A stretch of DNA of 64,000 nucleotides from Clostridia bacterium (GTDB lineage: Bacteria > Bacillota > Clostridia > Oscillospirales > CAG-272). The notes beneath the pieces were generated by a model. The model was not told the origin of the DNA, made no database searches, and was given only the letters and a program-made list of their open reading frames with translations. The position numbers and the translations under genes were made by a program. Shown here one piece after another: positions 1,747-52,640 of this stretch. Location: the NCBI GenBank assembly GCA_017396225.1, contig JAFQMP010000015.1, forward strand, positions 18,446-82,445. The letters are read 5' to 3'. Each line of letters opens with the position of its first letter. Position 1 is the first letter of the stretch.

Positions 1747-1840
1747 AGTATCTCCGTTTTTTCACCCCGTTTAGGGGGATTTTACAAGATAGCCCCAGAT
1801 ATATCGAAATATCCGGGGCTATTTTTGTCAGAATGGCAAA

Positions 1841-4393: not shown

Positions 4394-4414
4394 TGCGATT
4401 TATCTCCTTTCTCA

Positions 4415-6397
<1,983 letters not shown>

Positions 6398-6405
6398 TCA
6401 AACCG

Positions 6406-6669
6406 TTACTCGTTCAAGCTTCCGTGCTCACTTCTACCAAGCAGGGCAGCCGTGGAAATTTGTGAAAAGCATATCCCAAATCCCTTATTTTTTTCATAAA
6501 GCACGAAGGATTTCGGTATTTCCTCACTGGCGGCCTCCACCTCGCCGCGGCGACCTGCACCGCTTAAAAATTTTCTGGTTGTAGTGGAAACCGTTGCAGT
6601 ATCTGCATCAAAGATACCGATGATTTTCTTTTTTCTGAGGTTTTTGTTATTACCGACGTGTAAAAACAT
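6406..6669 (-). CDS. remB: DUF370/RemB-like small protein (the conserved recF-gyrB spacer gene of Firmicutes)
   Basis: 87 aa, starting 'MFLHVGNNKNL..KKIIGIFD', typical of the DUF370 family. Its position between recF and gyrB matches B. subtilis yaaB/remB. Confidence 0.55.
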   Translation of the reverse strand: MFLHVGNNKNLRKKKIIGIFDADTATVSTTTRKFLSGAGRRGEVEAASEEIPKSFVLYEKNKGFGICFSQISTAALLGRSEHGSLNE

Positions 6670-6681
6670 CTTTGTTCCCTC

Positions 6682-7794
6682 TTATTCTTCTTTTTGGTGA
6701 TAGCTGCCGCCCTTGACAAGGATACAACGCTCACCCGCAAAATCCGCAGCCTCACAGGCCGTTAAAATCACCTGTTTTCCTTTAATCTTTTTTAAGAGAT
6801 ATTCTTTTCTGCTGCGGTCAAGCTCGGATAATACATCATCAAACAAAAATACGGGATATTCGCCTGTTTCCTCACGGCAGAGCTCTCCTTCTGCCAGCTT
6901 TAAGGCAAGTGCCAGGCTTCTTTGTTGCCCTTGTGAGCAAAAGGTACGCGCCGCGCGACCGTTCAGCAGCACCTCTACGTCATCTTTATGTATACCCCAG
7001 AGAGTCGTGCCTGCCGCCCATTCGCGTTCCATATTTCTGCTTAATTTATCATATAATATTTTTTCGGTTTTGTCGTTATCTGCATAGTCAGAAATTTCCT
7101 TCATACAGGGACCCAGATAGCAAAGGCTCGGTTTCTCACGTGCATCTGTCATTTCGGCAAAGCATTCCTTCATATAACGCTCTGCACGCCCTATAAACAG
7201 TGCGCGGCGGGCGGCAATATATGCCCCCTCCTTAGCCAATTGCTTAGACCAGACATCTCCCGTTTCATAAAACAGTGTGGGATTATCCTCTGCGGACCTG
7301 ATTAAAGCATTTCTTTGCTTCAAAACGTGATGATAGCGCTGTAATGCAGCAAGATATAAGGGCTCTGCCGCACAAATGGCAATATCAAGAAAATTTCTTC
7401 TTTCACCCGGACCGTCCTTTATCAGAGATAAATGCTCCGGGCAAAAAAGAACTGCACGAAAGCTGCCGATAATTTCAGACATACGTCTGACACGTACGCG
7501 ATTTTTTTCGGCTGCACGCACACGATTGTTTCCAAGCAGAACAGAAATACTCTGGTCCCTTGTTCCTGCGTAAAAATCAAGTGAAATAAAGGCTTCCTTT
7601 TCTTCAAAGCGTATCAACTCATTCAGATGCTGCAAGCGAAAGCTTTTTCCGATTGAAACAAAATAAAGTGCCTCAAGCAGATTGGTTTTTCCCTCTGCAT
7701 TATCACCCAGCAACACATTAATACCCTCGTGAAAGGATATTTCTGCTTGTTCTATATTTCTGAAATTACGCAGTGTAATTTTTTTTGCAAGCAT
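6682..7794 (-). CDS. recF: DNA replication/repair protein RecF
   Basis: 370 aa. Walker A 'GDNAEGKTNLLEAL', signature 'SQGQQRSLALALKLAE', Walker B 'VFLFDDVLSELD'. Its start overlaps the dnaN stop. Confidence 0.95.
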   Translation of the reverse strand: MLAKKITLRNFRNIEQAEISFHEGINVLLGDNAEGKTNLLEALYFVSIGKSFRLQHLNELIRFEEKEAFISLDFYAGTRDQSISVLLGNNRVRAAEKNRVRVRRMSEIIGSFRAVLFCPEHLSLIKDGPGERRNFLDIAICAAEPLYLAALQRYHHVLKQRNALIRSAEDNPTLFYETGDVWSKQLAKEGAYIAARRALFIGRAERYMKECFAEMTDAREKPSLCYLGPCMKEISDYADNDKTEKILYDKLSRNMEREWAAGTTLWGIHKDDVEVLLNGRAARTFCSQGQQRSLALALKLAEGELCREETGEYPVFLFDDVLSELDRSRKEYLLKKIKGKQVILTACEAADFAGERCILVKGGSYHQKEE

Positions 7795-8948
7795 TATTCC
7801 TTAATACGAACAGGCAGGAGCATGAAAATATCCTCACAGCCCTCTTTTTCATCACCCACAGGCTCAATATTTACACTGGCTAGGGGAGAGGAAAGTGCAA
7901 GACGAACCATATCTCCCTCACAAGCACGCACAGAATCAATCAAAAATCTGTTGTTAAAGGCAATGGTAATATCTGTACCCTCATGTGCTATTTCAATTTC
8001 ATCATACGTGCTGCCGGCAGAGGAATTTGCAATAATTTTCAGCAGATTATCCTCAATCTGAAGCTTTACGTGTGTACGGACACTGCCTGCCACGCGCTCC
8101 TCGGTCACCAGTGCAGCACGGTCAAGCGCGGCAAGAAAGGCATCTCTGTTAAAGGTTGCATATATTTTATGCTGTCTGATAATGATGCGGTCATAATCCA
8201 TATACTCACCGTCAATCAGACGAGAGAAAAATACAATATTTTCAATGTGGAAAATAATATGACGGCGGGTCATATAAATTTTGACCTCTTTTTCCGCATC
8301 ACCGGTAATCAACTTATAAAGCTCATTTACGGTTTTAACAGGAACAATAAACTTAAAGCGCAAATCAGTACCGTCCTGATTATTATTTACAAGGTCGGTT
8401 TTGAGCTTACTTTTAGCAAGCTTTGCACCGTCGCAGGAAACAAGCGTAATGCTGTTATCCGAAACCTCAAAGGAGCAACCGTTGAGAATCGGACGCTGGT
8501 CATTTACACCCATTGCGTACATCACCTTGGAAAGCATTTCACGGAGAGTACCGCAGGGAAGTGCAAAGCCCTTCGCACTTTCAAGCAAAGGTAACTCAGG
8601 AAAATCACTGCCGGGAACAGCAATCATTTTATGAGAGGATTTACCACAGGTAAATGTAGCGCAAAGCTGATTATCAACAGTAAAGGTGACCTCATCTCCG
8701 TCCATTACACGCATGGTTCCGATAAATTTTTGTGCGTTGATGATGTAACTGCCTTCCTCAAGCACCTTGGTTTCGATGGTGGTTTTTACACCCTTTTCAA
8801 GGTCATAAGAGGTAAAGGTGCAAACATCAGGGTGCTTTGCCTCAATCAGAATACCGTCAATAGAGGAAAGTGTGGATTTGCCCGAGGCTGCAATCATCAG
8901 GGGAGATACTGCTGCAAGAATCTGCTGGCGATTGAAAATGATTTTCAT
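7794..8948 (-). CDS. dnaN: DNA polymerase III beta sliding clamp
   Basis: 384 aa with three-domain clamp length. Starts 'MKIIFNRQQIL' and lies between dnaA and recF. Confidence 0.93.
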   Translation of the reverse strand: MKIIFNRQQILAAVSPLMIAASGKSTLSSIDGILIEAKHPDVCTFTSYDLEKGVKTTIETKVLEEGSYIINAQKFIGTMRVMDGDEVTFTVDNQLCATFTCGKSSHKMIAVPGSDFPELPLLESAKGFALPCGTLREMLSKVMYAMGVNDQRPILNGCSFEVSDNSITLVSCDGAKLAKSKLKTDLVNNNQDGTDLRFKFIVPVKTVNELYKLITGDAEKEVKIYMTRRHIIFHIENIVFFSRLIDGEYMDYDRIIIRQHKIYATFNRDAFLAALDRAALVTEERVAGSVRTHVKLQIEDNLLKIIANSSAGSTYDEIEIAHEGTDITIAFNNRFLIDSVRACEGDMVRLALSSPLASVNIEPVGDEKEGCEDIFMLLPVRIKE

Positions 8949-9045
8949 AAAAATAAACTCCTTTTATTTGTCTTTATCGCCGCCCCTCGGGCGCGCGAAA
9001 AACTGATTTAATGAATAATATAAGGGTCGTAGTTTTATTAGGTGC

Positions 9046-9385
9046 TGTGGGTACTGTGGAAAACTCTCCAACTGCTTGAAAATAAAGGATTTTCCGTTTT
9101 TTGTCACAGGAAAATGTCGTGGTGTAATGAGAACAAACCAAACAGCGTAAAAATAAGAAAACAATGCTATTTTTCGTAAAATTGAATGAAACGCTTGAAA
9201 AACGGTTAAAATAATAAATTTAACGTGTTTTCCACAGCATGAACAGATGTGGAAAACTTTAATAATGGAAGGTAAAACAATGTTTTTTATTTTTACACAG
9301 AAAGAATTTCTAAGTAAATCAAGGATTTCAGAAAAAATCAAACGGTTTTTCACTGTTTTTTCACGATGTGGATAAGCAGTGGAAA
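9046..9385. other. oriC candidate: DnaA-box cluster in the dnaA-dnaN spacer
   Basis: Perfect box TGTGGATAA (=TTATCCACA) at 9367-9375. One-mismatch boxes TTTTCCACA 9228-9236 and TGTGGAAAA 9248-9256 form an inverted pair; another TGTGGAAAA is at 9055-9063. A weaker box TGTGGGTAC is at 9046-9054. The spacer is 437 bp and non-coding. Confidence 0.65.
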
Positions 9386-10723
9386 TCAGTCGCCGAGAAT
9401 TTCTTTTTTGAGATAATCAATATCTGCGGCGTAAAGGGGAGATTTGGTGATATTATCGGTAACAACCTTTAAGGAGGCCATTACAGTGGTATGGTCTCTG
9501 TTAAAAATTTTGCCGACATTGGGGTAAGACATTTCGGTAATATCGTGAATAAGATAGACTGCAATATGCCTTGCCGTTACAATTTCCTTGGTACGCTTTT
9601 TGCCGACAAGGTCCTCGCGGGAAATATCAAATTTTTTATAAACTGCCGCAAAAATTTTGTCAATGGTTACATTCAAGGGCTCGGTTTCGCCCAGCAGGTC
9701 AGAAACACAATCTCTGGCAAGCTCTAATGTAATGTTTCGTCCGTCAAGCATGCTCTTTGCCGTCAGCTTTTTGATAGCACCCTCAATCTGACGAATATTG
9801 GAACGCAGATTTTCCGCTAAGTACATCAGAACATCGGAGGGCAGGTCAATCTGCATATCCTCTGCCTTTTTCTTGATAATGGCGATACGTAATTCGAGGT
9901 CAGGCAAAATGATGTCTGCAAGCAAACCGCCTTCAAAGCGGGAGCGCAGACGCTCTGAGAGGGGATTGATGTCACGCGGCGGACGGTCGGAGGCAAGGAT
10001 AATCTGCTTGCCCTCCATAAACAGGGTATCGAAGGTGTTGAAAACCTCCTCCTGTGTACCAACCTTACCTGCAATAAACTGAATATCGTCAATCAGCAGA
10101 ACATCACATTCACGATAGCGGTCACGGAAGGCAGCCATTGTTTTATGTGTGATGCATTCCACCATGTAATTGACAAAATCCTCGCCCTTGGTATAAAGAA
10201 CCTTGGCAGAGGGCTTGCGCGTCAGAATTTCATTGACTACGGCATACATCAGGTGGGTTTTACCGACACCGGGCGGGCCGTAGATGAAAAGAGGGTTCCA
10301 CTCGTTTGAGGGGTTGCTTGCAACCTTCCAGCAAGCGGCTCTTGCAAACTTGTTGGTTTCACCGACAATGAAGTTGTTGAAGGTGTATCTTGAGCGGAGC
10401 GCCTTTTCCGCTACGTCCTCATCAGGGGGCGTTTGCGTTTGCAGTGCAATCGGCGTTTCCTCCTCCTCACAGCGGAAAAGCAGTGTTACGTCAAGCCCGC
10501 AGACAGAGGCAAATTTGCTCTCCAATTTCTCTTTATGCTTGGTTTCAAGCACCTTCTTTTTGAAGGAGGAGGTTGTGAGAAAGGTCAGTGTGGGGCCGAC
10601 AACCTCAAAGGATTCGGGCACAAGGTCACCGTACCAAAGGTCGCAAAAGGTTGCGGTATTTTCCTCAAGCATAGATTCCTTGACCATATCCCACATGACA
10701 ATAAACTCTTTTGGGCACTGCAT
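9386..10723 (-). CDS. dnaA: chromosomal replication initiator DnaA
   Basis: 445 aa. AAA+ Walker A 'GPPGVGKTHLM', Walker B 'LLIDDIQF', C-terminal DNA-binding signature 'NRDHTTVM'. Confidence 0.97.
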   Translation of the reverse strand: MQCPKEFIVMWDMVKESMLEENTATFCDLWYGDLVPESFEVVGPTLTFLTTSSFKKKVLETKHKEKLESKFASVCGLDVTLLFRCEEEETPIALQTQTPPDEDVAEKALRSRYTFNNFIVGETNKFARAACWKVASNPSNEWNPLFIYGPPGVGKTHLMYAVVNEILTRKPSAKVLYTKGEDFVNYMVECITHKTMAAFRDRYRECDVLLIDDIQFIAGKVGTQEEVFNTFDTLFMEGKQIILASDRPPRDINPLSERLRSRFEGGLLADIILPDLELRIAIIKKKAEDMQIDLPSDVLMYLAENLRSNIRQIEGAIKKLTAKSMLDGRNITLELARDCVSDLLGETEPLNVTIDKIFAAVYKKFDISREDLVGKKRTKEIVTARHIAVYLIHDITEMSYPNVGKIFNRDHTTVMASLKVVTDNITKSPLYAADIDYLKKEILGD

Positions 10724-15377: not shown

Positions 15378-16826
15378 TTAGTGATGAAGGGACAGGGCGT
15401 GGATTTCTTCCGCGGTTTTGCGCGTTTTGATGAGGTGCCTGAGGGAAAGCAGGGCGCAGATAAATTGGGCAATTGCGGTGAGCGCCCAGGAGATTGGGTA
15501 GGAAAGGTAGATGATTTCAAGTGTCGGATTGGCGCGGAAGACGGTGCAAATCCATACGATGCGGAGGAGACAGGCGCCGACCAACGAAATAAAGGTAGAG
15601 GAGAGTGATTTGCCAAGTCCGCGTACCACGCCGCAGCCCGTTTCCATAAAAGCGAGGAAGAAATAGGGAATGAACAAATAAAGCATACGGGAGTAGGCGG
15701 CGTCGTAGGCAAGGGCGGAAATCGTATCGGGTGTGCCGGGTGTGACATCGTAGAGTGCCAGCAGCGGCTCACGCAGCAGCAGCATACCAAATCCGAATAT
15801 TGCTGCCACGATGAAGGAGATAAGGTAGCAGCAGAGCATAACGCGCCGCACGCGCTCGTACTTGGCAGCCCCCACATTCTGGCTGGTAAAGGTGATAGAT
15901 GCCTGGTAGACCGAGTTTTGCGCGGTGTAGATAAAGCCCTCAAGATTTGCTGCTGCGGCGTTCCCCTTTACCACGGGCTGATAAGCGCTGCCTGCAGGGG
16001 CAAGCGCGTTGTTGACCTGTAGAATAGAGGATTGTATCAGCATATTGGAAATGGAGAAAAGAGAGCCCTGTACACCTGCGGGGAGACCGATGTAAACAAT
16101 ACTGCGGAAGGCGTGACGGTCAAAGCATAGTCTGCGTAGCGAAAAACGGCAGAAGCCTTTGTCGTGTGTAAGCTTGATGAGCAAAAGGACGGCGGATACG
16201 ACGTTGGAAAGCACGGTGGCAAGGGCGACGCCCTCGACCGACAGATGCAGCACAAGTACAAAGAAAAGATTAAAGACAACGTTGACAAGTCCTGCCACCG
16301 AGAGGATAACGAGCGGTGTTTTGGTGTCACCCTTGGCGCGGAAGATAGCAATCAGATAATTGGTCAGTGCAACGGCGGGGGCACCTGCAAAATAAATCTG
16401 ACAATAGAGCGTTGCGAGGTCAAGCAGCTTGCCCGCGGTGGTACCCATGAGTGCAAGCACAGGGCGGGAGATAATCAGGCCGATGACGGCGGCAATCATA
16501 CCGAAAGCAACACTCATCGCGATGGCGGTGTGTACGGTGCGTGAGGTTTGCTCCTCATCGCGGGCACCGAGGTGGCGCGCAACCATAACATTGGCACCTG
16601 TCGCAAAGCCCATAAAGACATTGATTACCAGGTTAATAAAGGAGCCTGTTACACCGATGGCGCCGACGGCGTCTGCCTCGGCAGAAAGGCCTACGACAAT
16701 CATATCGGCGGCATTATAAAGGGTTTGCAGCAGGTTTGTTGCCATCAACGGCAGTATAAAAATGAGAATTTTACCGAAAAGCGGCCCCTCGGTCATCACG
16801 AGCGGCCTTTTCTTTGTGGCTACCAT
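15378..16826 (-). CDS. MATE family efflux transporter (paralog 1)
   Basis: Polytopic; MatE N-terminus 'LMATNLLQTLYNAADMIVVG'. I trimmed the start to ATG 16826 because the longer track ORF runs through a consensus promoter and overlaps the divergent GNAT gene. Confidence 0.85.
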   Translation of the reverse strand: MVATKKRPLVMTEGPLFGKILIFILPLMATNLLQTLYNAADMIVVGLSAEADAVGAIGVTGSFINLVINVFMGFATGANVMVARHLGARDEEQTSRTVHTAIAMSVAFGMIAAVIGLIISRPVLALMGTTAGKLLDLATLYCQIYFAGAPAVALTNYLIAIFRAKGDTKTPLVILSVAGLVNVVFNLFFVLVLHLSVEGVALATVLSNVVSAVLLLIKLTHDKGFCRFSLRRLCFDRHAFRSIVYIGLPAGVQGSLFSISNMLIQSSILQVNNALAPAGSAYQPVVKGNAAAANLEGFIYTAQNSVYQASITFTSQNVGAAKYERVRRVMLCCYLISFIVAAIFGFGMLLLREPLLALYDVTPGTPDTISALAYDAAYSRMLYLFIPYFFLAFMETGCGVVRGLGKSLSSTFISLVGACLLRIVWICTVFRANPTLEIIYLSYPISWALTAIAQFICALLSLRHLIKTRKTAEEIHALSLHH

Positions 16827-16866
16827 TTTTTCACCGTAAGCGACAGGGCGCTTCCTTTCTAACCTC

Positions 16867-16895
16867 ATTATAATGACGCAAAGTGGCAAAGTCAA
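16867..16895 (-). promoter_or_regulatory. sigma-70-type promoter for MATE gene 1
   Basis: Minus strand reads TTGACT (16895-16890), a 17-nt spacer, then TATAAT (16872-16867), about 40 nt upstream of the ATG at 16826. Confidence 0.6.
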
Positions 16896-16994
16896 CCCTT
16901 TTTGATTTTTATTTATAAAAATCATTGCGCGAGGGGCTTGCATCGGTGGCGAAATGCTGTTATAATAGGGCAGAAGAACAAAGGGGGAGCGAAA

Positions 16995-17501
16995 ATGGAG
17001 CTGATACCAATTTGGGCAACCGATTTTGATGATATATATGAGGCGATGATTGAGGCATTTCCCTACGAGGAACGCCGTGACCGCGCGGCAGCGCGCGCAT
17101 TGCTTGATGAGCCTGCGTATCGGATTTTTCATACCGTAAGGGACGGTGTGCGCGTAGGCTTTATCACGGTCTGGGAGCTTGGGGATATCGCGTTTGCTGA
17201 GCATTTTGTGACCTATCCCGCATATCGCAACAAGGGATATGGCGCGCAGGTGATTGCGCGCTTACAGGGGCTTTATCCGCAGATTGTATTAGAGGTGGAG
17301 CCCCCCGACACACCGCTTGCCGCAAGGCGCATGGCGTTTTATGGGCGCACGGGCTTTGTGGCGAATGATTACCCTTATCTGCAGCCCTCGTATCACGGTG
17401 CGCGCGCAGGTGTGCCGCTTGTCCTGATGAGCTATCCCGAGGCACTTGTCAATCCCGAGGCGATTGCCGCAAGGCTTTATAAAGAGGTTTATAAGCAATA
17501 A
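16995..17501 (+). CDS. GNAT family N-acetyltransferase
   Basis: 168 aa from ATG 16995 (RBS AAGGGGGAG). Acetyl-CoA motif 'YRNKGYGAQVI'. Confidence 0.8.
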   Translation: MELIPIWATDFDDIYEAMIEAFPYEERRDRAAARALLDEPAYRIFHTVRDGVRVGFITVWELGDIAFAEHFVTYPAYRNKGYGAQVIARLQGLYPQIVLEVEPPDTPLAARRMAFYGRTGFVANDYPYLQPSYHGARAGVPLVLMSYPEALVNPEAIAARLYKEVYKQ

Positions 17502-17527
17502 AAAAAGCCCCATTCGGGGCTTTTTTA
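17501..17527. terminator. bidirectional intrinsic terminator
   Basis: AAAAAA-GCCCC-ATTC-GGGGC-TTTTTT between the convergent GNAT (+) and MATE 2 (-) genes. Confidence 0.8.
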
Positions 17528-18937
17528 TGTTTTTTGCGGTTTCGTTTTTTTGCGAATGACAATCAGCACCAGCAGGAGTTGGGCTGCCGTGGTCACAATC
17601 CAGGAAAGCGGATAGGAAATAAAGATAGAGGCAAGTGTCCCCCTCGTCGGAAACACCGTTGCAATCCAGACAATGCGCAGCAGGCAGGTGCCGACCAGGG
17701 TTATCAGGGTTGAGGTAACTGATTTTTTCAATCCCCTCGCCACACCTGTGCAGGTATCCAAAAAGGCGTAAAGCGGGAAGGGCAACAGGTGAAGGAGAAG
17801 GCGTTGATAGCCTGCGTCATAAGCAAGATAATCCAGGGTGCCGACGGCACCGTTTCTGACGCCATAGAGGGCGAGCAGCGGGGTTCTTGCAAAAAAGAGG
17901 ATAAGGGTGGCAACGGTGCCTAACAGCACGGTGGCAACCGAGCAGGCGAGGAAGGAGCGCCGCACGCGGTCATAGCGGTCAGCGCCTGCATTCTGGCTGG
18001 TAAAGGTCAATGCCGCCTGGTGGAGTGCGGTGCTGACGGCGAAGGCAAAGTTTTCAAGATTGGTGGCAGCCGCCGCGCCCTTCACAATAGGCTGATATGC
18101 GCTGCCCACGGGGGCAAGTGCGTTATTGACCTGCAGAATAGAGGATTGAATGATGATGTTGGAGAGGGAGAACATGGCCGATTGCAGACCTGCGGGCAAT
18201 CCCACGTGCAAAATCTCGCCGAATGCGGTGCGGTCAAAGCACAGGCGGCGCAGGGAGAAGCGGCAGGGGCTTTTATCCTTTGCCAAGCGAATGAGCAGCA
18301 CGACGGCGCTTGCGGCGTTGGAGATGGCGGTGGCAAGCGCCACGCCGTCCACCGACATATCAAATAAGAACACAAAGCCGAGATTTAATAAAACGTTCAG
18401 CAGACCGCCTGCCGTCAGTACGATAAAGGGCGTCTTGGTGTCGCCCTTGGCGCGCAGAATAGAAATGGCGTAGTTGGTGACAGATACGAAGGGGACACCC
18501 AGGAAATAGACCTTTGTGTAGAGGTCGGCAAGCTCCAGCAGCTTGTCCTCTGCGCCCATGAGGTGCAGCAGCGGGCGGGAAATCAGTGTGCCGACAGCGG
18601 CACAGGCAATGCCGAAAACAAGGCTCATCAGAATGGCGGTGTGGACGGTTTTGGAAACGCGGCCTTCGTCCTTGGCACCGAGGTGGCGCGCCACGATAAC
18701 GGTAGCGCCCGCGGCAAAGCCGATAAACAGATTGACAATCAGGTGCACGAGTGAGGAGCAGGCGCCGATTGCACCGACGGCATCTGGCTCTGATGAAAGC
18801 CCCACAATCACCATATCGGCGGTGCTGTACAGAATTTGCAACAGGTTGGTTGCAATAAGGGGTAATGCAAACCGGATAATGCGCGAAAAAATCGCTCCCT
18901 CGGTAAAATTGTGCTTTTTGAGCGCTGCGGTTTCCAA
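17525..18937 (-). CDS. MATE family efflux transporter (paralog 2)
   Basis: 470 aa. 'LIATNLLQILYSTADMIVVG', colinear with paralog 1 along the whole length. TTG start. Confidence 0.85.
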   Translation of the reverse strand: METAALKKHNFTEGAIFSRIIRFALPLIATNLLQILYSTADMVIVGLSSEPDAVGAIGACSSLVHLIVNLFIGFAAGATVIVARHLGAKDEGRVSKTVHTAILMSLVFGIACAAVGTLISRPLLHLMGAEDKLLELADLYTKVYFLGVPFVSVTNYAISILRAKGDTKTPFIVLTAGGLLNVLLNLGFVFLFDMSVDGVALATAISNAASAVVLLIRLAKDKSPCRFSLRRLCFDRTAFGEILHVGLPAGLQSAMFSLSNIIIQSSILQVNNALAPVGSAYQPIVKGAAAATNLENFAFAVSTALHQAALTFTSQNAGADRYDRVRRSFLACSVATVLLGTVATLILFFARTPLLALYGVRNGAVGTLDYLAYDAGYQRLLLHLLPFPLYAFLDTCTGVARGLKKSVTSTLITLVGTCLLRIVWIATVFPTRGTLASIFISYPLSWIVTTAAQLLLVLIVIRKKTKPQKT

Positions 18938-20111: not shown

Positions 20112-21437
20112 TTATCTGGGAGCGCCGACCTCGGCAGGCGCCTCGGCCTGTGCGGCAAGCTCCATTTTTTGCTTTGCCTCCTCACGTGCGGAGGTTTTAC
20201 CCTCGGGTCTGATATCACCTGCGCGGAGCAGCGACATTTTGGTCAGCATCGGGCCGACAAGCTCATAGACGAGCACGGCCATCAGGGTGATGTTGGAAAT
20301 AATCATGCCCTGTTCACCGAGCGCGTCCTTGGCCTTGATTGCCATGCCGAGCGCAACACCCGCCTGGGGCAGAAGGGTGATGCCGAGATATTTGACAATG
20401 TTGGGGTCACATTTTGTGAATTTTGCGCTTGCGTACGCACCGCTGTATTTGCCCACGGAGCGTGCAATAATGTAAACAACGCCGATGATGACAATGGCAA
20501 GGTCACCGAAGACCGAAAGCTCAAGCTCTGCACCGCTGAGGACAAAGAAGAGCAGGAACATCGGTGCCGTCCAACGGTCAAGTCTGTCCATTAGCTCCTC
20601 GGAGAAGTCACAGGTGTTGCAGAATACCGTGCCCAGCATCATACAGGTGAGCAGGGAGGAGAAGGCTACGTGTACACCGCCGACCTCAAACTTGAGCATA
20701 GAGAGCGCCACCGTCAGCAGCACAAAGCCCACCGACATCGAAAGACGCTTGGAGCGGGAATGGAAGAAGCGCTCAAAGAAGGTGATGAGGAAGCCCATAA
20801 TTGCACCGAGAAGGAGAGAAAGGACAATCTCAACCAGCGGCTCCACGATAATCGAAACAATGTCGGGCGAGCCTGCAATCAGCGCCTTGGATACGCCGAA
20901 GGAAATGGCAAAGAGAATGAGGCCGACAGCGTCATCAAGTGCAACGACGGGGAGCAGAATATCGGTAAGCGGCCCCTTTGCCTTGTACTGGCGGACAACC
21001 ATGAGGGTTGCGGCAGGGGCGGTTGCGGAGGCAACGGCACCAAGCACGATAGCCGCGGGTAGGGAGAGCTTGTCGGGCATTGCAAAGTGCAGACCGATGA
21101 GCGCGGCATCTACCAAAAGGGTTGCAACCACTGCCTGGAAAATGCCGATAATGGTTGCTTGCTTGCCGATTTTCTTCAATTGCGGCACGCGGAACTCGTT
21201 GCCGATAGAGAAGGCGATGAAGCCGAGCGCAACGTCACAGATGATGCCGAAGCTCTTGACGTTTTCGGCGCTGGTAAAGCCAAGACCGGGTACGTTAAAT
21301 GCGCCAAGCACGTAAGGACCAATCAGAATACCTGCAATCAGGTAAGCGGTCACGGCGGGGAGCGATGCCAGCTTAGCCAGACGCGAGAGCATCAGACCCG
21401 CAATCAGTGCTATGGCAAGGGGAAGCAGGATTTCCAT
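20112..21437 (-). CDS. cation:proton antiporter (CPA2, Na+/H+ exchanger family)
   Basis: 441 aa and polytopic. N-terminus 'LPAVTAYLIAGILIGPYVLG' is typical of the Na_H_Exchanger family. Short acidic/basic soluble tail. Confidence 0.8.
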   Translation of the reverse strand: MEILLPLAIALIAGLMLSRLAKLASLPAVTAYLIAGILIGPYVLGAFNVPGLGFTSAENVKSFGIICDVALGFIAFSIGNEFRVPQLKKIGKQATIIGIFQAVVATLLVDAALIGLHFAMPDKLSLPAAIVLGAVASATAPAATLMVVRQYKAKGPLTDILLPVVALDDAVGLILFAISFGVSKALIAGSPDIVSIIVEPLVEIVLSLLLGAIMGFLITFFERFFHSRSKRLSMSVGFVLLTVALSMLKFEVGGVHVAFSSLLTCMMLGTVFCNTCDFSEELMDRLDRWTAPMFLLFFVLSGAELELSVFGDLAIVIIGVVYIIARSVGKYSGAYASAKFTKCDPNIVKYLGITLLPQAGVALGMAIKAKDALGEQGMIISNITLMAVLVYELVGPMLTKMSLLRAGDIRPEGKTSAREEAKQKMELAAQAEAPAEVGAPR

Positions 21438-21564: not shown

Positions 21565-21593
21565 CAAAAAAAGCCGCCTTAAGGCGGCTTTTT
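21565..21593 (-). terminator. intrinsic terminator ending the acyl-transfer cassette
   Basis: Minus strand AGCCGCC-TTAA-GGCGGCT followed by a T7 run, immediately after the stop of the LRAT::PPTase gene. Confidence 0.8.
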
Positions 21594-22587
21594 ACGCTAA
21601 TTTTATATCCTTGAAGACGCGCACGGCGTGCGGCGTAGCGGTTGCAACCGACCAGGCGTAGGTCCTGTCTTCTACGGTAAGGCTGCCTTGTTTCAGAGAG
21701 GCGGTGGTGGTATCAATCTCGGAAAGACGCAGTCCGCCCTTCGCTTGCTTGAATACTGCCTCCTTGCCCGTAAAGCAGGAAATCAGATAGGCGGTTTTCT
21801 CGGCTGCGGGCAGGCCTTTCCATTCCGTTTGCTCGTTTTCGGTGAAAATACGCGCGGCAAGCGCCTCGTCACTGTGGGTGCGCACGCGCTCAATGTCAAT
21901 GCCGACAGGGGTGCGGGAAACGGCGACAGCCAGCGCTCCCTCACTGTGGGAAAGGGAAAATTCCGCACCGTTTACCGTCCAACCGCCGTAAGGCTGCTTG
22001 GCAAAGGTGAGGCCTTCGGCACGCAGGCCCAGGCTGCGCTCCAGTCCGTAGCAGAGCAGCTGCCAGACGTAGTGCTTTTCCAGGCGCACGCGCTCGTTTG
22101 CGGTTTCCTCGATTTCCGCACGTCTTTCCGCGCAGATGATTGGCACCGTGGGTGCGACATCGGGCATCTTTGCGAAATACACATCAACAAGCGGCAGATT
22201 ACGGAAATAGGCACGCACGTCCTCTGCCTGACGGCAGATTTGCTTGCCCGAAATACATTCGTTTGCAAAATGCTCGCAGTTGTTGTAAAGAATGTGGTAG
22301 CCCTTCATGCCGATTTTGGCTCTGGCGTAGGAGACGGTTTCTGCGGCACTGCGGCGCGGTTCTCCCTCGTCAAACAAAGCAACCTCAGGCTTGCCGCCTG
22401 CAAGAAACGCGGTGAGGTCTGCGGCAAGCACCGTAATCTCGCTGTCCTGCAATCTTGCGCGCGCCGAAGGGGGGAGACCAAACTGAATGACCTCTTTTTC
22501 GGACACGTAAATGCCAAAGTGATAAATGCCGCCCAGTGCAACACGAATCATATCGCCGTAGGCGGGCTTTTTATGCTCCCACCGCAT
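21592..22587 (-). CDS. fusion protein: N-terminal LRAT/HRASLS-type (NlpC/P60 superfamily) acyltransferase domain plus C-terminal Sfp-type 4'-phosphopantetheinyl transferase
   Basis: 331 aa. LRAT motifs 'GDMIRV..GIYHFGIYV' and the catalytic-Cys motif 'YHILYNNCEHFANEC'. PPTase motifs 'FSLSHSEG', 'GIDIE', 'FTGKEAVFK'. The start shares 1 nt with the ACP stop. Confidence 0.8.
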   Translation of the reverse strand: MRWEHKKPAYGDMIRVALGGIYHFGIYVSEKEVIQFGLPPSARARLQDSEITVLAADLTAFLAGGKPEVALFDEGEPRRSAAETVSYARAKIGMKGYHILYNNCEHFANECISGKQICRQAEDVRAYFRNLPLVDVYFAKMPDVAPTVPIICAERRAEIEETANERVRLEKHYVWQLLCYGLERSLGLRAEGLTFAKQPYGGWTVNGAEFSLSHSEGALAVAVSRTPVGIDIERVRTHSDEALAARIFTENEQTEWKGLPAAEKTAYLISCFTGKEAVFKQAKGGLRLSEIDTTTASLKQGSLTVEDRTYAWSVATATPHAVRVFKDIKLA

Positions 22588-22841
22588 CAGACAGCCTTTT
22601 TTTCGATGTAGTCAATGACGTCGCCAACGGTCCTGAAGTCCGAAAAGCCCACGTCATCAAAGCGCAGGTTGAAAAACTCCTCAATCGCAATGACAACATA
22701 GAGCACGCCGACAGAGGAAAGTCCTACATCGGTAATCAGGTTAGATGCTTCGGTCAGGCCCTCAAGTCTGTCATCGGCAGGGAGCGCCATTTTCATCACG
22801 TCAAGGAGCTTTTCCTTGATTTCATTTCTTTGCATTGCCAT
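22587..22841 (-). CDS. acyl/peptidyl carrier protein
   Basis: 84 aa and acidic. Ppant-attachment motif 'DVGLSSVGVLYVV'. The start overlaps the ligase stop. Confidence 0.8.
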   Translation of the reverse strand: MAMQRNEIKEKLLDVMKMALPADDRLEGLTEASNLITDVGLSSVGVLYVVIAIEEFFNLRFDDVGFSDFRTVGDVIDYIEKKAV

Positions 22842-24333
22842 TTAAGCTCCTCGCAATCTTCATCGCGGGGGTACGGATAAAATCGGTATCCCTGATGATA
22901 ATTTTGTTAATTCTCTCGAAAGAGGGAAGGGTTTCGTTGATTTCGGCAACAGCGGCCTTGAGGTAGGACTCCAAATCCGTGATGCCGAGCGCCGTGACGC
23001 TTGCTGCGCGGGGCAGTACCTCAAGCACCAGCATTTCATGTCCGTCCTCGCGGGTGTCGTAAACAAGGCAATCCTGTACCACGTCAAGGGCGTAGAATTT
23101 CACCTCAAGCTCAGCGGGGGAAACGTTTTCGCCCGTTGAGAGCACGATGATTTCCTTGGTACGTCCCGTGATATAAAGGAAGCCCTCCTCATCGATGCGG
23201 ACAAGGTCGCCTGTCTTGAAATAGCCGTCCTCGTAGGAGGTGGCGTTGTCCTCGTCAGTGACGTAGCCGTCCATCATATTGATGCCCTTCAGCCAGAGCT
23301 CGCCGTCTACAATCCTGTACTCCATGCCGTCATAAATCAGACCGACCGAATCGGGTTTGCGGAGCGCCTCGGGGTTGCCCGAAACAAGGTTGGCGGATTC
23401 GGTCAGACCGTAGCCGGGCAGCAGGGTGATGCCCATTTTGTCATATTCCTTGACAAGGTAGGGGGCAACAGGCGCTGCACCGCAGATAATGGTTTTCAAA
23501 TCTGCGCCGAGCATATTCCTGCCAAATTGGCGGGAAAGGTTGATTGCCATTTCGGCAAGCGCAGGCACCAGCACCAGAATGGTTGGCTTGAAAACGGCAA
23601 TATCGCGGAACATATCCTTGTTATTGCGGCAGATGTAGAGCGCGCTGCCCGTGTAAAGCGCTGTCATCAGGTTGCGGATTAAGCCGAATACATGGGTGAG
23701 AGGGAGCACAAGCAGATAGCGCTCCTCAAAGATTTTTTTGATACCGTAGCAGCCGTTTTTCGTGCCCGCAAGCACGGCGCGGTGGCTGAGTCTTGCGCCC
23801 TTGCTCTTGCCCGTGGTGCCGCCTGTAAAGAGGAAGGCACAGGGTGTTTCGGGTGGAACGGAAATGGCCGGCGTGGGCTCCTCGGCGGTGGCAGAGGAGG
23901 GAATCAGCGCAACCTGCGGCAGCTTTGCCTTCACCGAGGCAATCTTGTCGGCAAGCGATTCGTCATAGACGATTGCCTTCAGACCGAACTTGCAGCTGAT
24001 GCCGAATATGGTAGCGGCATCGAGGTGTGCAGGAAGCAAAACGGCAGGGAGTGCCGTGGTTGCGGCGGCAAGAAAGGCCTTGACAAAGCCCACCGAATTG
24101 GGGCTGAGAATGGCAACAAGCGAGCCTTGCTGCACGCCCTGCGTGCGATAAACGGTGCGGAAGGCGGCAATCTCATTATCAAGTGCCTTATAGGTGTATT
24201 CCTTGCCGTCCACAATGGCAATGTTATCGGGATAGGTGACAACACTGTGCTGCCACATTTCGGTAACGCTTGCAAAATCTATGATTTTGGCGAATGTTTC
24301 CGCATCGGTATATTGCTTAAATTTCTCATTCAT
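22822..24333 (-). CDS. AMP-dependent (ANL) acyl ligase
   Basis: 503 aa. 'FTGGTTGKSKG', 'PGYGLTES', 'FKTGDLVRIDEEGFLYITGR'. Resembles the partial ligase at 1-716. Confidence 0.88.
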   Translation of the reverse strand: MNEKFKQYTDAETFAKIIDFASVTEMWQHSVVTYPDNIAIVDGKEYTYKALDNEIAAFRTVYRTQGVQQGSLVAILSPNSVGFVKAFLAAATTALPAVLLPAHLDAATIFGISCKFGLKAIVYDESLADKIASVKAKLPQVALIPSSATAEEPTPAISVPPETPCAFLFTGGTTGKSKGARLSHRAVLAGTKNGCYGIKKIFEERYLLVLPLTHVFGLIRNLMTALYTGSALYICRNNKDMFRDIAVFKPTILVLVPALAEMAINLSRQFGRNMLGADLKTIICGAAPVAPYLVKEYDKMGITLLPGYGLTESANLVSGNPEALRKPDSVGLIYDGMEYRIVDGELWLKGINMMDGYVTDEDNATSYEDGYFKTGDLVRIDEEGFLYITGRTKEIIVLSTGENVSPAELEVKFYALDVVQDCLVYDTREDGHEMLVLEVLPRAASVTALGITDLESYLKAAVAEINETLPSFERINKIIIRDTDFIRTPAMKIARSLNGNAKK

Positions 24334-25057
24334 CTTGCGTTTCTCCTTGCAGCTTTGCGGATTGCTTTTTACTGCGAATCAGTCGCTTGTAAATGGGCAG
24401 TGATTCAAAGTAGTCCTTGAGCGCGAGCTCACGTGCGCGCAGGTCGTCACTCGCCGCGGTCAGTGCCGCCATAGAGGGCATTTTGCCCAGTGTCTCGGTA
24501 AGGTCAATCGGCTCGCCAATCACCACACGTTGACGCTGATACCACTTGTAGTGGTCTGCGATATAGACAGGCAGAATCGGCGCGCCCGCCTTGTGCGCCA
24601 TCAGCACGGCGCCCGATTTGAAGGCGAGAATTTCGCCCTTCCTCGTCTGGTTGACCTCTCCCTCGGGGAAAATGACAACCGCGTGACCGTTTTGCAAGCG
24701 CCCGACCACATCGTGGAAGGCGGATACCGTAAAATTGTCCTTGTCTACCTTGATGCAATGCACCCTTTCAAGGAAGGCGCCCATGGGACCCTTGGCGTAC
24801 AAATCCTTGGTGACCAGGCAGTGCAAGCGCCTGAAGGGGAAGGACACAAGCACCGTGAGGGGGTCAATAAAGCTCCTGTGGTTGGCGGAAATCAGAACGG
24901 CTCCCTTGGGTGTTCTGGTGCCGTAGGGGCGATAAATTTTAGGGCGCAGCCACAGCCATGTGAGGGGGCCGCCCGTGATTTTTACAAAGTCGTGCAGAAA
25001 ATTGTAAAATGGCCGCCACTTGCGCGGTCGTTTGGCTTTTTTATCGGATTGACGCAC
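24326..25057 (-). CDS. PlsC-family lysophospholipid/glycerol-phosphate acyltransferase-like protein
   Basis: 243 aa. Acyltransferase blocks 'NHRSFIDP' (HX4D), 'FPEGE', 'APILPV'. Its stop overlaps the ligase start by 8 nt. Confidence 0.8.
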   Translation of the reverse strand: MRQSDKKAKRPRKWRPFYNFLHDFVKITGGPLTWLWLRPKIYRPYGTRTPKGAVLISANHRSFIDPLTVLVSFPFRRLHCLVTKDLYAKGPMGAFLERVHCIKVDKDNFTVSAFHDVVGRLQNGHAVVIFPEGEVNQTRKGEILAFKSGAVLMAHKAGAPILPVYIADHYKWYQRQRVVIGEPIDLTETLGKMPSMAALTAASDDLRARELALKDYFESLPIYKRLIRSKKQSAKLQGETQDE

Positions 25058-25135
25058 CGTTTTACTCCTAACATAAGTATTAAAGTTATTATATCATATA
25101 CGTGCACGGATTTCAACTTTTTATTTGAGTTACCT

Positions 25136-28992: not shown

Positions 28993-29685
28993 TTAATCAA
29001 GATTTGCCAAAAACTCCTTCGTAATGGAAACGGCTGTTTTGGCGGCAAGGGGGCAGAACTCGGAAAATTCCATGCCGTTGCCGCCGTCGGAAATGGTGCG
29101 CAGCACCGCGAAGGGAACGCCGTTGACATAGGCAACGTGACCAATGGCGGCACCCTCCATTTCGCAGGCAAGGGCATCAAAATCTCTGACGAGCTTTTCC
29201 TTGGTGGAGGCCTTTTCTACAAACAGGTCGCCTGAGGCAATTGTGCCGACCATGCCGTTATAATCCAGCGCGGCGGTGGCTGTACAAAGCGCCTTCAGGA
29301 GGGTTTGGTCAGCTTTGATTTTTACAATATTAATGCCTGACAAGAGGCCCTGCGGGTCGCCGAGCGCGGTGGTGTTCATATCGTGCTGCACAACCTCATC
29401 GGCAAGCACGACGTCACCGACCTCCAGCATCGGGGAAAGACCGCCGGCGACACCTGTATTGAGCAGCGCGGTAACACCAAAGCGCAGAATCATTGCCTCG
29501 GCACAAATGGCGGCAAAGACTTTGCCGACGCCTGAGGTGGCAACCACGACATCGCGCCCGCAGAGCCTGCCCTCGGTAAAGGTGACGCCGCTGACAACGC
29601 TCTCGCGCGTGTCGGTCATTTCTGCAATCAGTCCTTCGGTTTCAATTTTCATGGCACCGATGATGCCGATAACCTGCTTATTCAT
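28993..29685 (-). CDS. mtnN: 5'-methylthioadenosine/S-adenosylhomocysteine nucleosidase
   Basis: 230 aa from ATG 29685 (RBS AGGAGG). 'IGIIGAMKIE', 'SGVGKV', 'ACEMEGAAIGHV'. The start overlaps the luxS stop. Confidence 0.9.
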   Translation of the reverse strand: MNKQVIGIIGAMKIETEGLIAEMTDTRESVVSGVTFTEGRLCGRDVVVATSGVGKVFAAICAEAMILRFGVTALLNTGVAGGLSPMLEVGDVVLADEVVQHDMNTTALGDPQGLLSGINIVKIKADQTLLKALCTATAALDYNGMVGTIASGDLFVEKASTKEKLVRDFDALACEMEGAAIGHVAYVNGVPFAVLRTISDGGNGMEFSEFCPLAAKTAVSITKEFLANLD

Positions 29686-30130
29686 AGTCAAAGCCTCCTG
29701 TCTGTGCCTCCAGCGCGATAATATAGGAGGCGCATTCATTTTTTGCGTCCTCAACGCTGAGGTTTTCATAGTTGCCGCATTCCTTGCGGGTGTTGCCGAA
29801 CATCGGTCCTGTGTGGGTCAGCACCGCGCGCAGTGCGGTGAGCAGTGCTTTGCGCACGCGCTCGGGGGCAACGCCGCGCGTTAAGAGATAAAATCCTGTT
29901 TGGCAGCCCATGGGGCCGAAATAAATAACTTTATCGCCGATTTCACCGTTTCGCATATAGGTGGCAAGCATGTGCTCCACCGAATGCATCGTGCGTGTTG
30001 ACATATATGAGCCCATATTGGGGCGGCGGGTACGTAAATCAAAGGTGATAATATCATCATCAATGCGGGAGATATACATACCGGGCATGATTTTGTCGTG
30101 GTCAACCGAAAAGCTTGTAATGCGTTCCAT
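29678..30130 (-). CDS. luxS: S-ribosylhomocysteine lyase (AI-2 synthase)
   Basis: 150 aa from ATG 30130 (RBS AAGGAG). Metal site 'HSVEHM' and 'GCQTGFY'. Confidence 0.93.
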   Translation of the reverse strand: MERITSFSVDHDKIMPGMYISRIDDDIITFDLRTRRPNMGSYMSTRTMHSVEHMLATYMRNGEIGDKVIYFGPMGCQTGFYLLTRGVAPERVRKALLTALRAVLTHTGPMFGNTRKECGNYENLSVEDAKNECASYIIALEAQTGGFDYE

Positions 30131-30143
30131 AGGGCGTTCTCCT

Positions 30144-30947
30144 TTATTTTTCTGCCGCCTCACGGCGGCGGTATTCGCTGGGGGTTGTCTGCATCTGCTT
30201 GATAAAGGCGCGGTTGAAGGTGCGTGATGTGGTAAAGCCGACAAGCTCCGCAATTTCCGTGACAGGGCGCTTACTGTGGCGCAGATGGTGGCAGGCGTAA
30301 GAAATGCGCAGGGAATTGATGTAATCGTTGAAATGCATATGCAGCTTGTCCGAAAACAGATGTGAGATATAATAGCGGCTGATGTGCAGCTCCCTTTCCA
30401 GTGTCGCAAGTGAGATTTCGTTTCGATAATTCTGCATACAGTAAGATAGGATAGATTTCAGGGGGTGCGTTTCTCCCGAGGGGGATTCCTTTAACTCCAT
30501 TTGACGGAGCAGGCGGGAAAAGAGCATCAGCAGAACGCCCTCGCGCTCGGCGTTGGTAAAGGTGTTGTCCTCTTCCGGCATTTCGGTGAGGCGGTAGAGC
30601 AGCCTTAGCACCTCTTTGTCGTTTGCCGCGCCCTTGATGACGTTTTTGCGTGGTAGCTTCTCGTGAAAAACGGTGCTGAGTGCGGGCATTAGATTGGGGT
30701 TAATGATGAGTAGTACATAATGCTCGTCGTCGTGTGATTCATAGCGGTGAATCTGATTGGGGAAGGCGATGAAAATATCGCCCGCCGCCAGCTCCTCCCG
30801 CTCGGCATCGGCAAAAGCAGTTGCCGAGCCATTCAGCATAATGGCCATTTCAATATGGTAATGCAGGTGCGCGGAGCAGCCAATGCGCCGCTGTGAGATT
30901 TCGGTCAGCGTGAGGTCTGTTTTTCGGTTCTCGTAAAAGACGAGCAT
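30144..30947 (-). CDS. AraC-family transcriptional regulator (cupin sensor plus HTH)
   Basis: 267 aa. N-terminal cupin-like half; C-terminal 'ISRYYISHLFS' and 'GFTTSRTFNRAFIKQMQTTPSEYR'. Confidence 0.85.
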   Translation of the reverse strand: MLVFYENRKTDLTLTEISQRRIGCSAHLHYHIEMAIMLNGSATAFADAEREELAAGDIFIAFPNQIHRYESHDDEHYVLLIINPNLMPALSTVFHEKLPRKNVIKGAANDKEVLRLLYRLTEMPEEDNTFTNAEREGVLLMLFSRLLRQMELKESPSGETHPLKSILSYCMQNYRNEISLATLERELHISRYYISHLFSDKLHMHFNDYINSLRISYACHHLRHSKRPVTEIAELVGFTTSRTFNRAFIKQMQTTPSEYRRREAAEK

Positions 30948-48344: not shown

Positions 48345-48419
48345 GGCCCGTTAGTCAAGCGGCTAAGACGTCGCCCTCTCACGGCGAAGGCATGGGTTCG
48401 ATTCCCGTACGGGTCACCA
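48345..48419 (+). tRNA. tRNA-Glu (anticodon CUC), CCA end encoded
   Basis: GGCCCGTTAGTCAAGCGGCTAAGACGTCGCCCTCTCACGGCGAAGGCATGGGTTCGATTCCCGTACGGGTCACCA. Acceptor stem GGCCCGT/ACGGGTC, anticodon loop CU-CUC-AC. Coordinates were cross-checked against an overlapping track ORF. Confidence 0.93.
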
Positions 48420-48428
48420 AAAACAAAA

Positions 48429-48460
48429 GACCACCTCAAACGAGGTGGACTTTTGTTTTT
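48429..48460 (+). terminator. intrinsic terminator after tRNA-Glu
   Basis: Stem CCACCTC-AAAC-GAGGTGG followed by TTTTGTTTTT. Confidence 0.75.
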
Positions 48461-48635
48461 GACGGCCCATATGGGCCGTAATCGAACCCGGGGTGCCCAA
48501 GCAACCTGAACGCAAAAATTGATGCTGGCAATGGGGCACACATGGGTTCGCATACCCCGCCCGAAGATCGGGGAGCGCCTTGCAAAGCAAGGCATTCACC
48601 AGGCGCAGGGCGTGGGTATATTCGCCGCAGGCGAA

Positions 48636-48649: not shown

Positions 48650-48672
48650 TTTTGCACTATGAAGCAAGCCGA

Positions 48673-52630: not shown

Positions 52631-52640
52631 CGGAGGATTT

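Follow-up and report, generated by a model that had tools for sequence, protein, structure and literature searches.

In the Aas mechanism, the transferase domain passes an acyl group to a lipid hydroxyl via an acylated acyl carrier protein (acyl-ACP); LplT-Aas has so far been reported only in Gram-negative bacteria, and lysolipid acylation has been observed in streptococci (PMC11416262). In rhodobacteria, the acyl-coenzyme A (CoA)-synthetase-like ligase AasR acylates only its dedicated carrier, AcpR, and thereby channels free fatty acids into sphingolipid synthesis (PMC9386255). The aryl polyene system has an ACP-loading ligase that looks like an acyl-CoA synthetase (ApeH with ApeE/F), together with the acyltransferase ApeD, the thioesterase ApeK, and the phosphopantetheinyl transferase AcpT (PMC8253772). 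Transfer of acyl groups from an ACP by a papain-like enzyme is known for BtrH, and the catalytic triad of the LRAT/PLAAT family is Cys-His-His (PMC10318531). Described here is a four-gene cassette found in a 64,000-nucleotide (nt) stretch of a Clostridia bacterium genome (GenBank assembly GCA_017396225.1, contig JAFQMP010000015.1, positions 18,446 to 82,445), which is referred to as the window and whose own numbering is used throughout. The cassette encodes a PlsC-type acyltransferase (AT1), an adenylate-forming ligase (LIG1), a dedicated ACP, and a protein in which an LRAT domain is fused to a 4'-phosphopantetheinyl transferase (PPTase), an architecture that was undescribed. An earlier note, made from the DNA letters alone, had drawn attention to these genes. 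We read them, with confidence evenly balanced for and against, as a private carrier-dependent acylation module of a split Aas-like kind, which would place a fatty acid on its own ACP and then pass it to a lipid acceptor.

All four genes are on the minus strand, at 24326-25057 (AT1, 243 amino acids (aa), GTG start), 22822-24333 (LIG1, 503 aa), 22587-22841 (ACP, 84 aa), and 21592-22587 (LRAT::PPTase fusion, 331 aa), and the open reading frame (ORF) list bore out the successive overlaps of 8, 20, and 1 nt that the earlier note had reported. The transcript would start at a sigma-70-type promoter-like site (25088-25116, minus strand; TTGAAA-17 nt-TATAAT with a TG extension, 11 of 12 consensus matches), pass through AT1, LIG1, ACP, and the fusion in that order, and end at a strong terminator. 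A GGAG ribosome-binding site was located 8 nt 5' of the AT1 start codon (25057). The intrinsic terminator (21566-21591, minus strand) lies directly 3' of the fusion stop codon and is composed of a GCCGCC-TTAA-GGCGGC stem, an A/U-pair extension, and then 7 U. Its hairpin, AAAAAGCCGCC-TTAA-GGCGGCUUUUUUU, had a folding energy of -19.6 kcal/mol (z = -3.5 against shuffled sequences), as befits the strength claimed for it in the earlier note; a consensus terminator scan missed it, probably because the A/U stem extension uses up the T-run. All five domain calls exceeded the Pfam gathering scores, so that the domain assignments made earlier from motifs alone were upheld, and every motif quoted at that time was present in AT1, LIG1, ACP, and the fusion. 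Hydropathy analysis predicted no transmembrane helices in the four proteins, weak hydrophobic stretches aside.

Each half of the fusion is, by sequence, a member of its own Pfam family. The N-terminal half, an LRAT/PLAAT-type permuted NlpC/P60 domain (residues 1-125; 22213-22587, minus strand), matched PF04970 over residues 7-116 with an E-value of 2e-15 and a score of 57.4 bits (cut-off 24.3), covering profile positions 2-119 of 120. Its motifs, HFGIYV (23-28) and NNCEHFANEC (102-111), stand in the permuted order, His before Cys, and the predicted catalytic pair is His23 (22519-22521) and Cys104 (22276-22278), the latter in NCEHF. The residues His23, Asn103, Cys104, Glu105, and His106 were invariant in 81 of 81 sequences. 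Sequence matches in the PDB were to PLAAT4/RARRES3 (2lkt, 7zot) and HRASLS2 (4dpz), and Foldseek placed the domain with HRASLS2 and PLAAT3/4 (4dpz, 7zot, 7zom, 4fa0, 4dot; E-values 4e-6 to 1e-5, target-normalised TM-scores 0.7-0.83). The dyad, whose competence the earlier note had left to be checked, is therefore retained within a PLAAT fold. A basic loop, KEKKKNR, was present in most fusion orthologues.

The C-terminal half is an Sfp-type PPTase domain (residues ~130-331; 21595-22200, minus strand), which matched PF01648 over residues 227-315 (E-value 2e-13; 50.6 bits, cut-off 25). The key residues are His214, Asp231 and Glu233 of GIDIE (229-233), and Lys275, Glu276, and Lys280 of FTGKEAVFK (272-280), and the catalytic residues Asp231, Lys275, and Glu276 were intact in 75 of 81 orthologues. 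By sequence, this half was related to Sfp (1qr0, E-value 1.5e-6), with the GIDIE and KE motifs aligned, and it matched the AcpT model with an E-value of 4e-11, under the cut-off of that model. By structure, Foldseek matched it to Sfp (4mrt_A, E-value 2e-13 over 219 columns), and AASDHPPT, PptT, and PptAb were also matched. The AlphaFold model of the fusion, built on 21 homologues, had a mean confidence (pLDDT) of 87.8, with values of ~70-93 in the LRAT region. No C-terminal membrane anchor was predicted by hydropathy, the C-terminal part of the protein being the PPTase domain, and the fusion is predicted to be cytoplasmic.

The LRAT::PPTase protein is a real, conserved family and not an accident. 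A search of a protein collection clustered at 90% identity yielded 452 proteins at E<=1e-3, of which the best 120 were all full length, 48-73% identical, and furnished with both Pfam domains; the few named ones came from metagenome-assembled genomes (MAGs) of Clostridia or Ruminococcaceae. Among 1.84 billion representatives, 553 clusters (50% identity) reached E<=1e-30 in a profile search. In species-representative genomes, a relative is encoded in at least 524 stretches. Named hosts were uncultured gut Clostridia (Oscillospiraceae, Acutalibacteraceae, Christensenellaceae, Faecousia, Scatosoma, Coproplasma, and Ruminococcus), the exceptions being one contig labelled Bacteroides and one labelled Butyrivibrio. 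Full-text searches on LRAT with PPTase, on bacterial LRAT with ACP, and on PPTase fusions found no paper describing an LRAT and PPTase fusion, in agreement with the earlier note, which had not recognised the architecture, and public records give the relatives automatic names only, such as 'lecithin retinol acyltransferase family protein' or 'phosphopantetheinyl transferase'. A separate observation among the LRAT proteins was P0263, which has 1125 aa and contains 11 tandem LRAT domains (PF04970, E-value 1e-275).

Translational coupling is conserved along with the fusion. The order AT1-LIG1-ACP-fusion and its overlapping junctions recurred in homologues that are only 35-55% identical. The ACP stop codon and the fusion start overlapped in 69 loci, the extent being 4 nt in 53 of them and 1 nt in the other 16, and the ligase/ACP overlap was most often 20 or 10 nt. 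The ACP itself matched PF00550 with an E-value of 3e-5 and has an isoelectric point of 4.35. Its predicted phosphopantetheine attachment site is Ser43 (codon 22713-22715) in DVGLSSVG, where GLSS comprises residues 40-43; in alignments with fatty acid synthase-type ACPs, Ser43 fell on the DSL serine, and its conservation was at least 90% in 77 orthologues. The adjacency of the two genes and the overlap of ACP stop and fusion start suggest that this serine is modified by the fusion.

AT1 carries the hallmarks of the PlsC family, with an E-value of 2e-20 to PF01553 (73 bits, cut-off 23), the HX4D motif in NHRSFIDP (residues 59-66; 24860-24883), and FPEGE at residues 130-134 (FPEG, 24656-24670). 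The nearest solved structure was PlsC of T. maritima (5kym, E-value 3.5e-10). The top NCBIfam match overall was the generic PlsC domain model TIGR00530, at 71.8 bits and below its cut-off of 102.95, and the top equivalog matches were to Aas-type acyl-[ACP]--phospholipid O-acyltransferases, in their acyltransferase part and far under their cut-offs. The arginine of the EGTR motif of 1-acyl-glycerol-3-phosphate acyltransferases is not intact in AT1: after a 2-residue insertion, the motif III Arg aligns with Gln (FPEGEVNQTRKG versus FPEGT--RSPDG of 5kym). Because the TIGR00530 threshold was missed and the motif III Arg is displaced, the acceptor of AT1 may not be lysophosphatidic acid. The sequence FPEGEVN of AT1 resembles FPEGKVN, which we take to be the motif of tafazzin, a CoA-independent transacylase, and this resemblance was not used as evidence.

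LIG1 matched the AMP-binding family PF00501 with an E-value of 1e-56 and, in its C-terminal part, PF23562. The core motifs of adenylate-forming ligases were identified as A3 (FTGGTTGKSKG, 169-179), A5 (GYGLTE, 307-312), A7 (KTGDL), A8 (GRTKE), and the A10 lysine in PAMKIAR. The best solved relatives were FadD13 (3r44) and feruloyl- and fatty-acyl-CoA synthetases, with E-values of ~1e-31, and by sequence LIG1 is nearer to acyl-CoA ligases of the FadD13 and MenE kind than to Aas. Loading of the ACP is consequently suggested by the gene context and not by family membership. On a different view, LIG1 would be an ordinary acyl-CoA synthetase and AT1 a PlsC paralogue, both placed by chance beside the ACP and PPTase of another pathway, with no dedicated acyl-ACP route. 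The acyl-CoA ligases among the best matches speak for this, as does a ligase paralogue at the left edge of the window whose C-terminal domain is the same. However, the four genes are translationally coupled, occur together in hundreds of species-level genomes, and are pairwise fused in some, and such a chance arrangement is considered highly improbable.

In the acylation module as we envisage it, the C-terminal PPTase domain would convert apo-ACP to holo-ACP at Ser43. LIG1 would adenylate a carboxylic acid, most probably a fatty acid of exogenous origin, and would load it onto the ACP thiol rather than onto CoA. AT1 would then transfer the acyl group from acyl-ACP to the hydroxyl of a lipid acceptor, either a lysolipid or a compound of the glycerol-phosphate type, at the inner face of the membrane. 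The LRAT domain, acting through His23 and Cys104 with an acyl-cysteine intermediate, would work on the same pool of carrier-bound thioesters, being held near the ACP by the PPTase domain, and most likely would either edit or unload mis-acylated ACP in the manner of a type II thioesterase or pass the acyl group to a further acceptor. A carrier thioester is thus the most likely substrate of this domain, whether it serves as an editing thioesterase or as a transacylase. It is favoured by the fusion to an ACP-binding enzyme, the overlap of the fusion start with the ACP stop, the lack of the PLAAT anchor, and the precedent of BtrH.

A serious rival, which is the reading of the earlier note and which we rate as a tentative possibility, is a Lands-type unit. 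In it the LRAT domain, as a phospholipase A/transacylase acting on membrane phospholipids, would make a lysolipid, AT1 would re-acylate this with a new fatty acid supplied through LIG1 and the ACP, and priming of the ACP would be all that the PPTase does. The domain does match PLAAT2/3/4, which are phospholipase A/acyltransferases, by sequence and fold; its catalytic dyad is invariant; the AT1/LIG1 pair has the Aas layout; and the KEKKKNR loop could bind anionic membranes. Bacterial permuted NlpC/P60 enzymes that act on lipids are also known, for example LnsA (PMC7387801). However, no phospholipid supply or import gene was found in the window, and the domain to which LRAT is joined binds ACP and not membrane. 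PLAAT enzymes need their C-terminal membrane anchor, but this is absent from the fusion, where no transmembrane helix was predicted. The phospholipid-acyl shuffling that the earlier note had assigned to LRAT found no support of its own, and fusion to a PPTase points at least as strongly to a carrier thioester.

The setting of the cassette was examined by calling ORFs in 83 fetched loci (designated L) and comparing these with the proteins of the window and with the neighbouring genes in L001. As LRAT peptide patterns had served to fetch the loci, this census is biased, and the constancy of LRAT within it is in part built in. The commonest layout was LIG2-MFS-AT2-AT1-LIG1-ACP-fusion, in which LIG2 is a second ligase of ~640-660 aa with an AMP-binding domain fused to a phosphopantetheine-binding (PP-binding) domain, MFS is a major facilitator superfamily transporter, and AT2 is a second acyltransferase. 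LIG2 resembles fatty-acid ligases and not amino-acid adenylation domains. The MFS gene was present in 59 of ~80 related loci, either after LIG2 or after the fusion; the linked protein (635 aa) belongs to the MFS_2, glycoside-pentoside-hexuronide (GPH) family and gave no LplT match, and no sequence match to it was found among solved structures. In 37 loci there followed a gene for an alpha/beta hydrolase (Hydrolase_4; 365 aa), whose one predicted membrane helix is N-terminal. The plain four-gene form was seen, besides the window, in L002, L003, L013, L017, L019, and L076, and with a hydrolase appended in L011 and L027. The window cassette is accordingly a reduced form of a 7-8 gene operon, and the description 'self-contained' in the earlier note had to be given up, as the four genes are not the typical unit. 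In its full form, the operon has two ligase/carrier pairs that might serve two acyltransferases. Substrates could be supplied or imported by the MFS protein and by the membrane-anchored hydrolase, the catalytic domain of which would by its inferred topology lie outside the cell; the presence of these two proteins in relatives fits uptake or release of lipid substrates.

The same larger operon brings in another explanation, namely that the product is a specialised acylated lipid or small molecule (an acylated sugar, a glycolipid, or an amino lipid), with LRAT as a third N- or O-acyltransferase or as the release enzyme. A private ACP with a private PPTase is typical of specialised pathways, as in the aryl polyene cluster and with AcpR, two ligase/carrier pairs and two acyltransferases suggest a defined multi-acyl product, and the transporter of the relatives is of the GPH/MFS_2 family and not LplT. 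In addition, AT1 gave weak NCBIfam matches to the ornithine-lipid O-acyltransferases OlsA and OlsF, and PLAATs can N-acylate amines. Nevertheless, the operon has no glycosyltransferase, amino-acid-activating domain, or N-acyl synthase that would form a head group, LIG2 is like fatty-acid ligases, and the cassette stands in a housekeeping neighbourhood ~11 kb from dnaA with a GC content like that of its flanks. This explanation is regarded as rather unlikely.

Several variants of the operon bear on the split Aas-like reading proposed here. In L038, AT1 and LIG1 are fused into one 722-aa AT::ligase protein, which is exactly the layout of Aas, and AT2 is fused to AT1 in L067, L071, and L073. The split Aas-like system inferred in the earlier note therefore stood in part: the gene order, the L038 fusion, the equivalog matches of AT1, and the frequency of the MFS gene speak for it, but LIG1 is nearer to acyl-CoA ligases. 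LIG1 was absent from L031, L032, L036, and L041, in which ACP and the fusion are kept, and both LIG1 and the separate ACP were absent from L042, L069, and L070. The four variants that lack only LIG1 are compatible with, and no demonstration of, a further role for LRAT as an ATP-independent phospholipid:ACP transacylase, which would move acyl chains between membrane or host phospholipids and the ACP thiol through a Cys104 acyl-enzyme. We consider this role improbable; if it were true, phospholipid:ACP transacylation would be a reaction class not described so far, and the full operon, with its probably extracellular hydrolase, would be a Gram-positive lipid-scavenging and remodelling machine of uncultured gut Clostridia.

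Besides the manner in which the loci were retrieved, a number of findings weigh against a private acylation module with LRAT acting on the carrier thioester. The two halves of the fusion also occur apart. In a subfamily of ~280 aa (L048, L058, and L060; also P0141, P0148, and others), ~55 residues containing GIDIE...FTGKEAVFK are deleted and LRAT is intact, and in L081 and L083 an LRAT-only protein of 138-140 aa follows the ACP. Conversely, related PPTases without LRAT were found in L088-L090, L092-L094, and L096-L097. Physical coupling of the two domains is therefore not obligatory. The third triad position of LRAT, which we located from what we take to be the PLAAT3 sequence, is Gln35 in the window and not His; of the 81 family sequences, 66 have Gln here, 12 Ala, and 3 Glu. 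To our knowledge, phospholipid O-esters, and not thioesters, are the acyl donors of all LRAT/PLAAT enzymes characterised to date. LIG1 scored higher with acyl-CoA ligase models (202 bits with NF004837 and 183 bits with MenE) than with Aas-type models (107 bits), all of these being below the curated cut-offs. Finally, tblastn found no MFS transporter, LIG2, or AT2 in the window, the sole extra match being the paralogous ligase fragment at 12-449, so that the acceptor is not indicated locally.

Close relatives of the window provided some information on the history of the PPTase. An identical fusion protein was found on four further contigs from other samples, with the whole cassette seen in L084, L086, and L087, and the gene beyond the terminator varied among the contigs with this protein. 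In L084 and L085, two small unknown genes (L084 6667-7461) take the place of the Na+/H+ exchanger that lies downstream in the window, and comparison of the window with L084 set the boundary of this variation at the cassette terminator. The exchanger (20112-21437, minus strand) was considered as a member of the cassette and rejected, as it has its own promoter-like site beyond the terminator. The zinc-ribbon membrane proteins (X185) found downstream in some relatives likewise look like unrelated neighbours.

In two related lineages with the same flanking genes, AT1-LIG1-ACP-LRAT was missing altogether. In one of these (L088 367-1014, L089 455-1102, and L090 130-777) the PPTase stands alone; it is 64% identical to the C-terminal half of the fusion and has its own TTGACA/TATAAT promoter, and the flanks shared with the window are the Na+/H+ exchanger, Dabb, GNAT, MatE, RadC, and phosphotransferase system (PTS) EIIC genes. 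The other was seen in two independent assemblies, L092 (857-2017) and L093 (875-2035), where the S-component of an energy-coupling factor (ECF) transporter and the PPTase form one in-frame fusion protein (P0220, 386 aa; 76% identical to the ECF protein of the window and 67% to the PPTase half). In L094, AT2-AT1 is followed by P0256 (569 aa; 1709-3418), in which a PPTase is joined through a hydrophobic, probably transmembrane segment to the alpha/beta hydrolase whose gene comes after that of the fusion in many operons, with no LRAT. More distant stand-alone PPTases, ~40% identical, were found in unrelated contexts. The proteins P0223, P0220, P0224, and P0250 are genuine forms without LRAT; two other candidates for stand-alone PPTases were rejected, P0193 as a gene cut by the contig edge and P0207 as a frameshifted full fusion. 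From the stand-alone and otherwise-fused forms, the PPTase looks like a resident enzyme that was repeatedly fused to partners, and in the organism of the window it may serve other carriers too.

Directly upstream of the cassette, the window encodes a 175-aa ECF-transporter S-component (PF12822; 25136-25663, minus strand). No terminator was found in the ~20-nt gap between this gene and the cassette promoter. No riboswitch was detected in the window at the Rfam gathering thresholds, which returned only two tRNAs, and none links the S-component to the cassette; a connection of the S-component with pantothenate or CoA supply is conceivable. The cassette has the GC content of its flanks and lies among housekeeping genes, with rpmG-secE-nusG-rplK-rplA on one side and the dnaA-dnaN-recF-gyrB-gyrA origin region ~11 kb off on the other. 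The origin region (1841-10723, minus strand) consists of gyrA (1841-4393), gyrB (4415-6373), recF (6682-7794), dnaN (7794-8948), and dnaA (9386-10723), and the minimum of the cumulative GC skew falls near 8 kb.

Other features of the window were recorded in passing. At 45-716 (plus strand), running off the left edge, is the C-terminal part of a second AMP-binding ligase (PF23562), 33% identical to LIG1 over 221 residues, which may be a housekeeping fatty-acid ligase. Within 15378-18937, two paralogous MATE efflux genes, one at 15378-17204 (listed as an ORF that reaches too far 5') and one at 17525-18937, stand on either side of a GNAT acetyltransferase gene of the opposite strand (16902-17501). 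At 28993-30409 (minus strand), motif reading alone indicated a methylthioadenosine/S-adenosylhomocysteine (MTA/SAH) nucleosidase-like gene (28993-29769) and a LuxS-like gene (within 29678-30409), with an AraC-type regulator and an alanine racemase next to them. A stretch of low GC content (0.39-0.43) at 48345-54000 starts beside a tRNA-Glu gene (48345-48419) and is a possible acquired island. Encoded there are a leucine-rich-repeat surface protein of the BspA type (854 aa; 48850-51414, minus strand) and a protein of 185 aa that contains a PARP-like ADP-ribosyltransferase domain (51756-52313).

If the split Aas-like reading is right, the fusion would contain the first LRAT/PLAAT-family enzyme tied to acyl-carrier-protein chemistry, and the cassette would be a candidate Gram-positive counterpart of LplT/Aas lysolipid repair. 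This operon family, found widely among the uncultured Clostridia that live in human and animal guts, could explain how these bacteria incorporate or remodel host and dietary lipids, and the window supplies it as a compact four-gene unit that is open to direct reconstitution.

Among the closest known systems is Aas of E. coli, a 2-acyl-GPE acyltransferase/acyl-ACP synthetase that is partnered by the LplT transporter. Aas and the cassette both have a PlsC-type acyltransferase followed by an adenylate-forming ligase, HX4D is present, and in L038 the two are a single protein. The MFS transporter linked in most related operons recalls the pairing of Aas with LplT. The cassette differs in having separate genes, its own ACP, its own PPTase, and an added LRAT domain, in a ligase that is nearer to the FadD13/MenE type, and in its Gram-positive host. 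No transporter of the LplT kind is encoded in the window, and the MFS_2/GPH protein of the relatives has no LplT match. Against the Aas equivalog models NF005959, NF006386, and NF005291, AT1 scored 37-65 bits and LIG1 107 bits versus cut-offs of 886-1349, and a search of the Gram-positive Aas/LplT literature found no description of this system. By analogy, the cassette would work like Aas; by the curated models, it is not a member of the Aas family. Likewise, AT1 has motif I (HX4D), motif III (FPEG), and PF01553 of the PlsC/LPLAT family, but does not fall in the 1-acyl-glycerol-3-phosphate acyltransferase subfamily (TIGR00530).

The remaining likenesses concern the carrier and the fusion. As with AasR/AcpR, the ligase gene overlaps (by 20 nt) a small ACP gene with a DSL-type serine, but in that system the consumer is a serine palmitoyltransferase and not a PlsC-type enzyme, and neither a PPTase nor an LRAT domain is involved. 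The PPTase half has the two-lobed fold of ~200 residues seen in B. subtilis Sfp and other group II PPTases, with His, Asp/Glu, and Lys/Glu at the catalytic and metal-binding positions, but it bears an N-terminal LRAT domain, and in one sub-lineage the PPTase core is deleted and LRAT kept. The LRAT domain shares with vertebrate LRAT/PLAAT (HRASLS) proteins the Pfam family, the permuted His...Cys order, NCEHF, and the fold; unlike them, it has no anchor, has Gln or Ala and not His as the third triad residue, and is bacterial, predicted to be cytoplasmic, fused to a PPTase, and part of an ACP operon. The aryl polyene cluster is similar to the cassette in its set of functions, namely loading of an ACP by a ligase with no CoA intermediate, joining of the acyl chain to a lipid anchor by an LPLAT, a thioesterase, and a PPTase of the Sfp type (PMC8253772), whereas the cassette is without chain-elongation enzymes and the thioesterase-like role would fall to an LRAT-fold cysteine enzyme fused to the PPTase.

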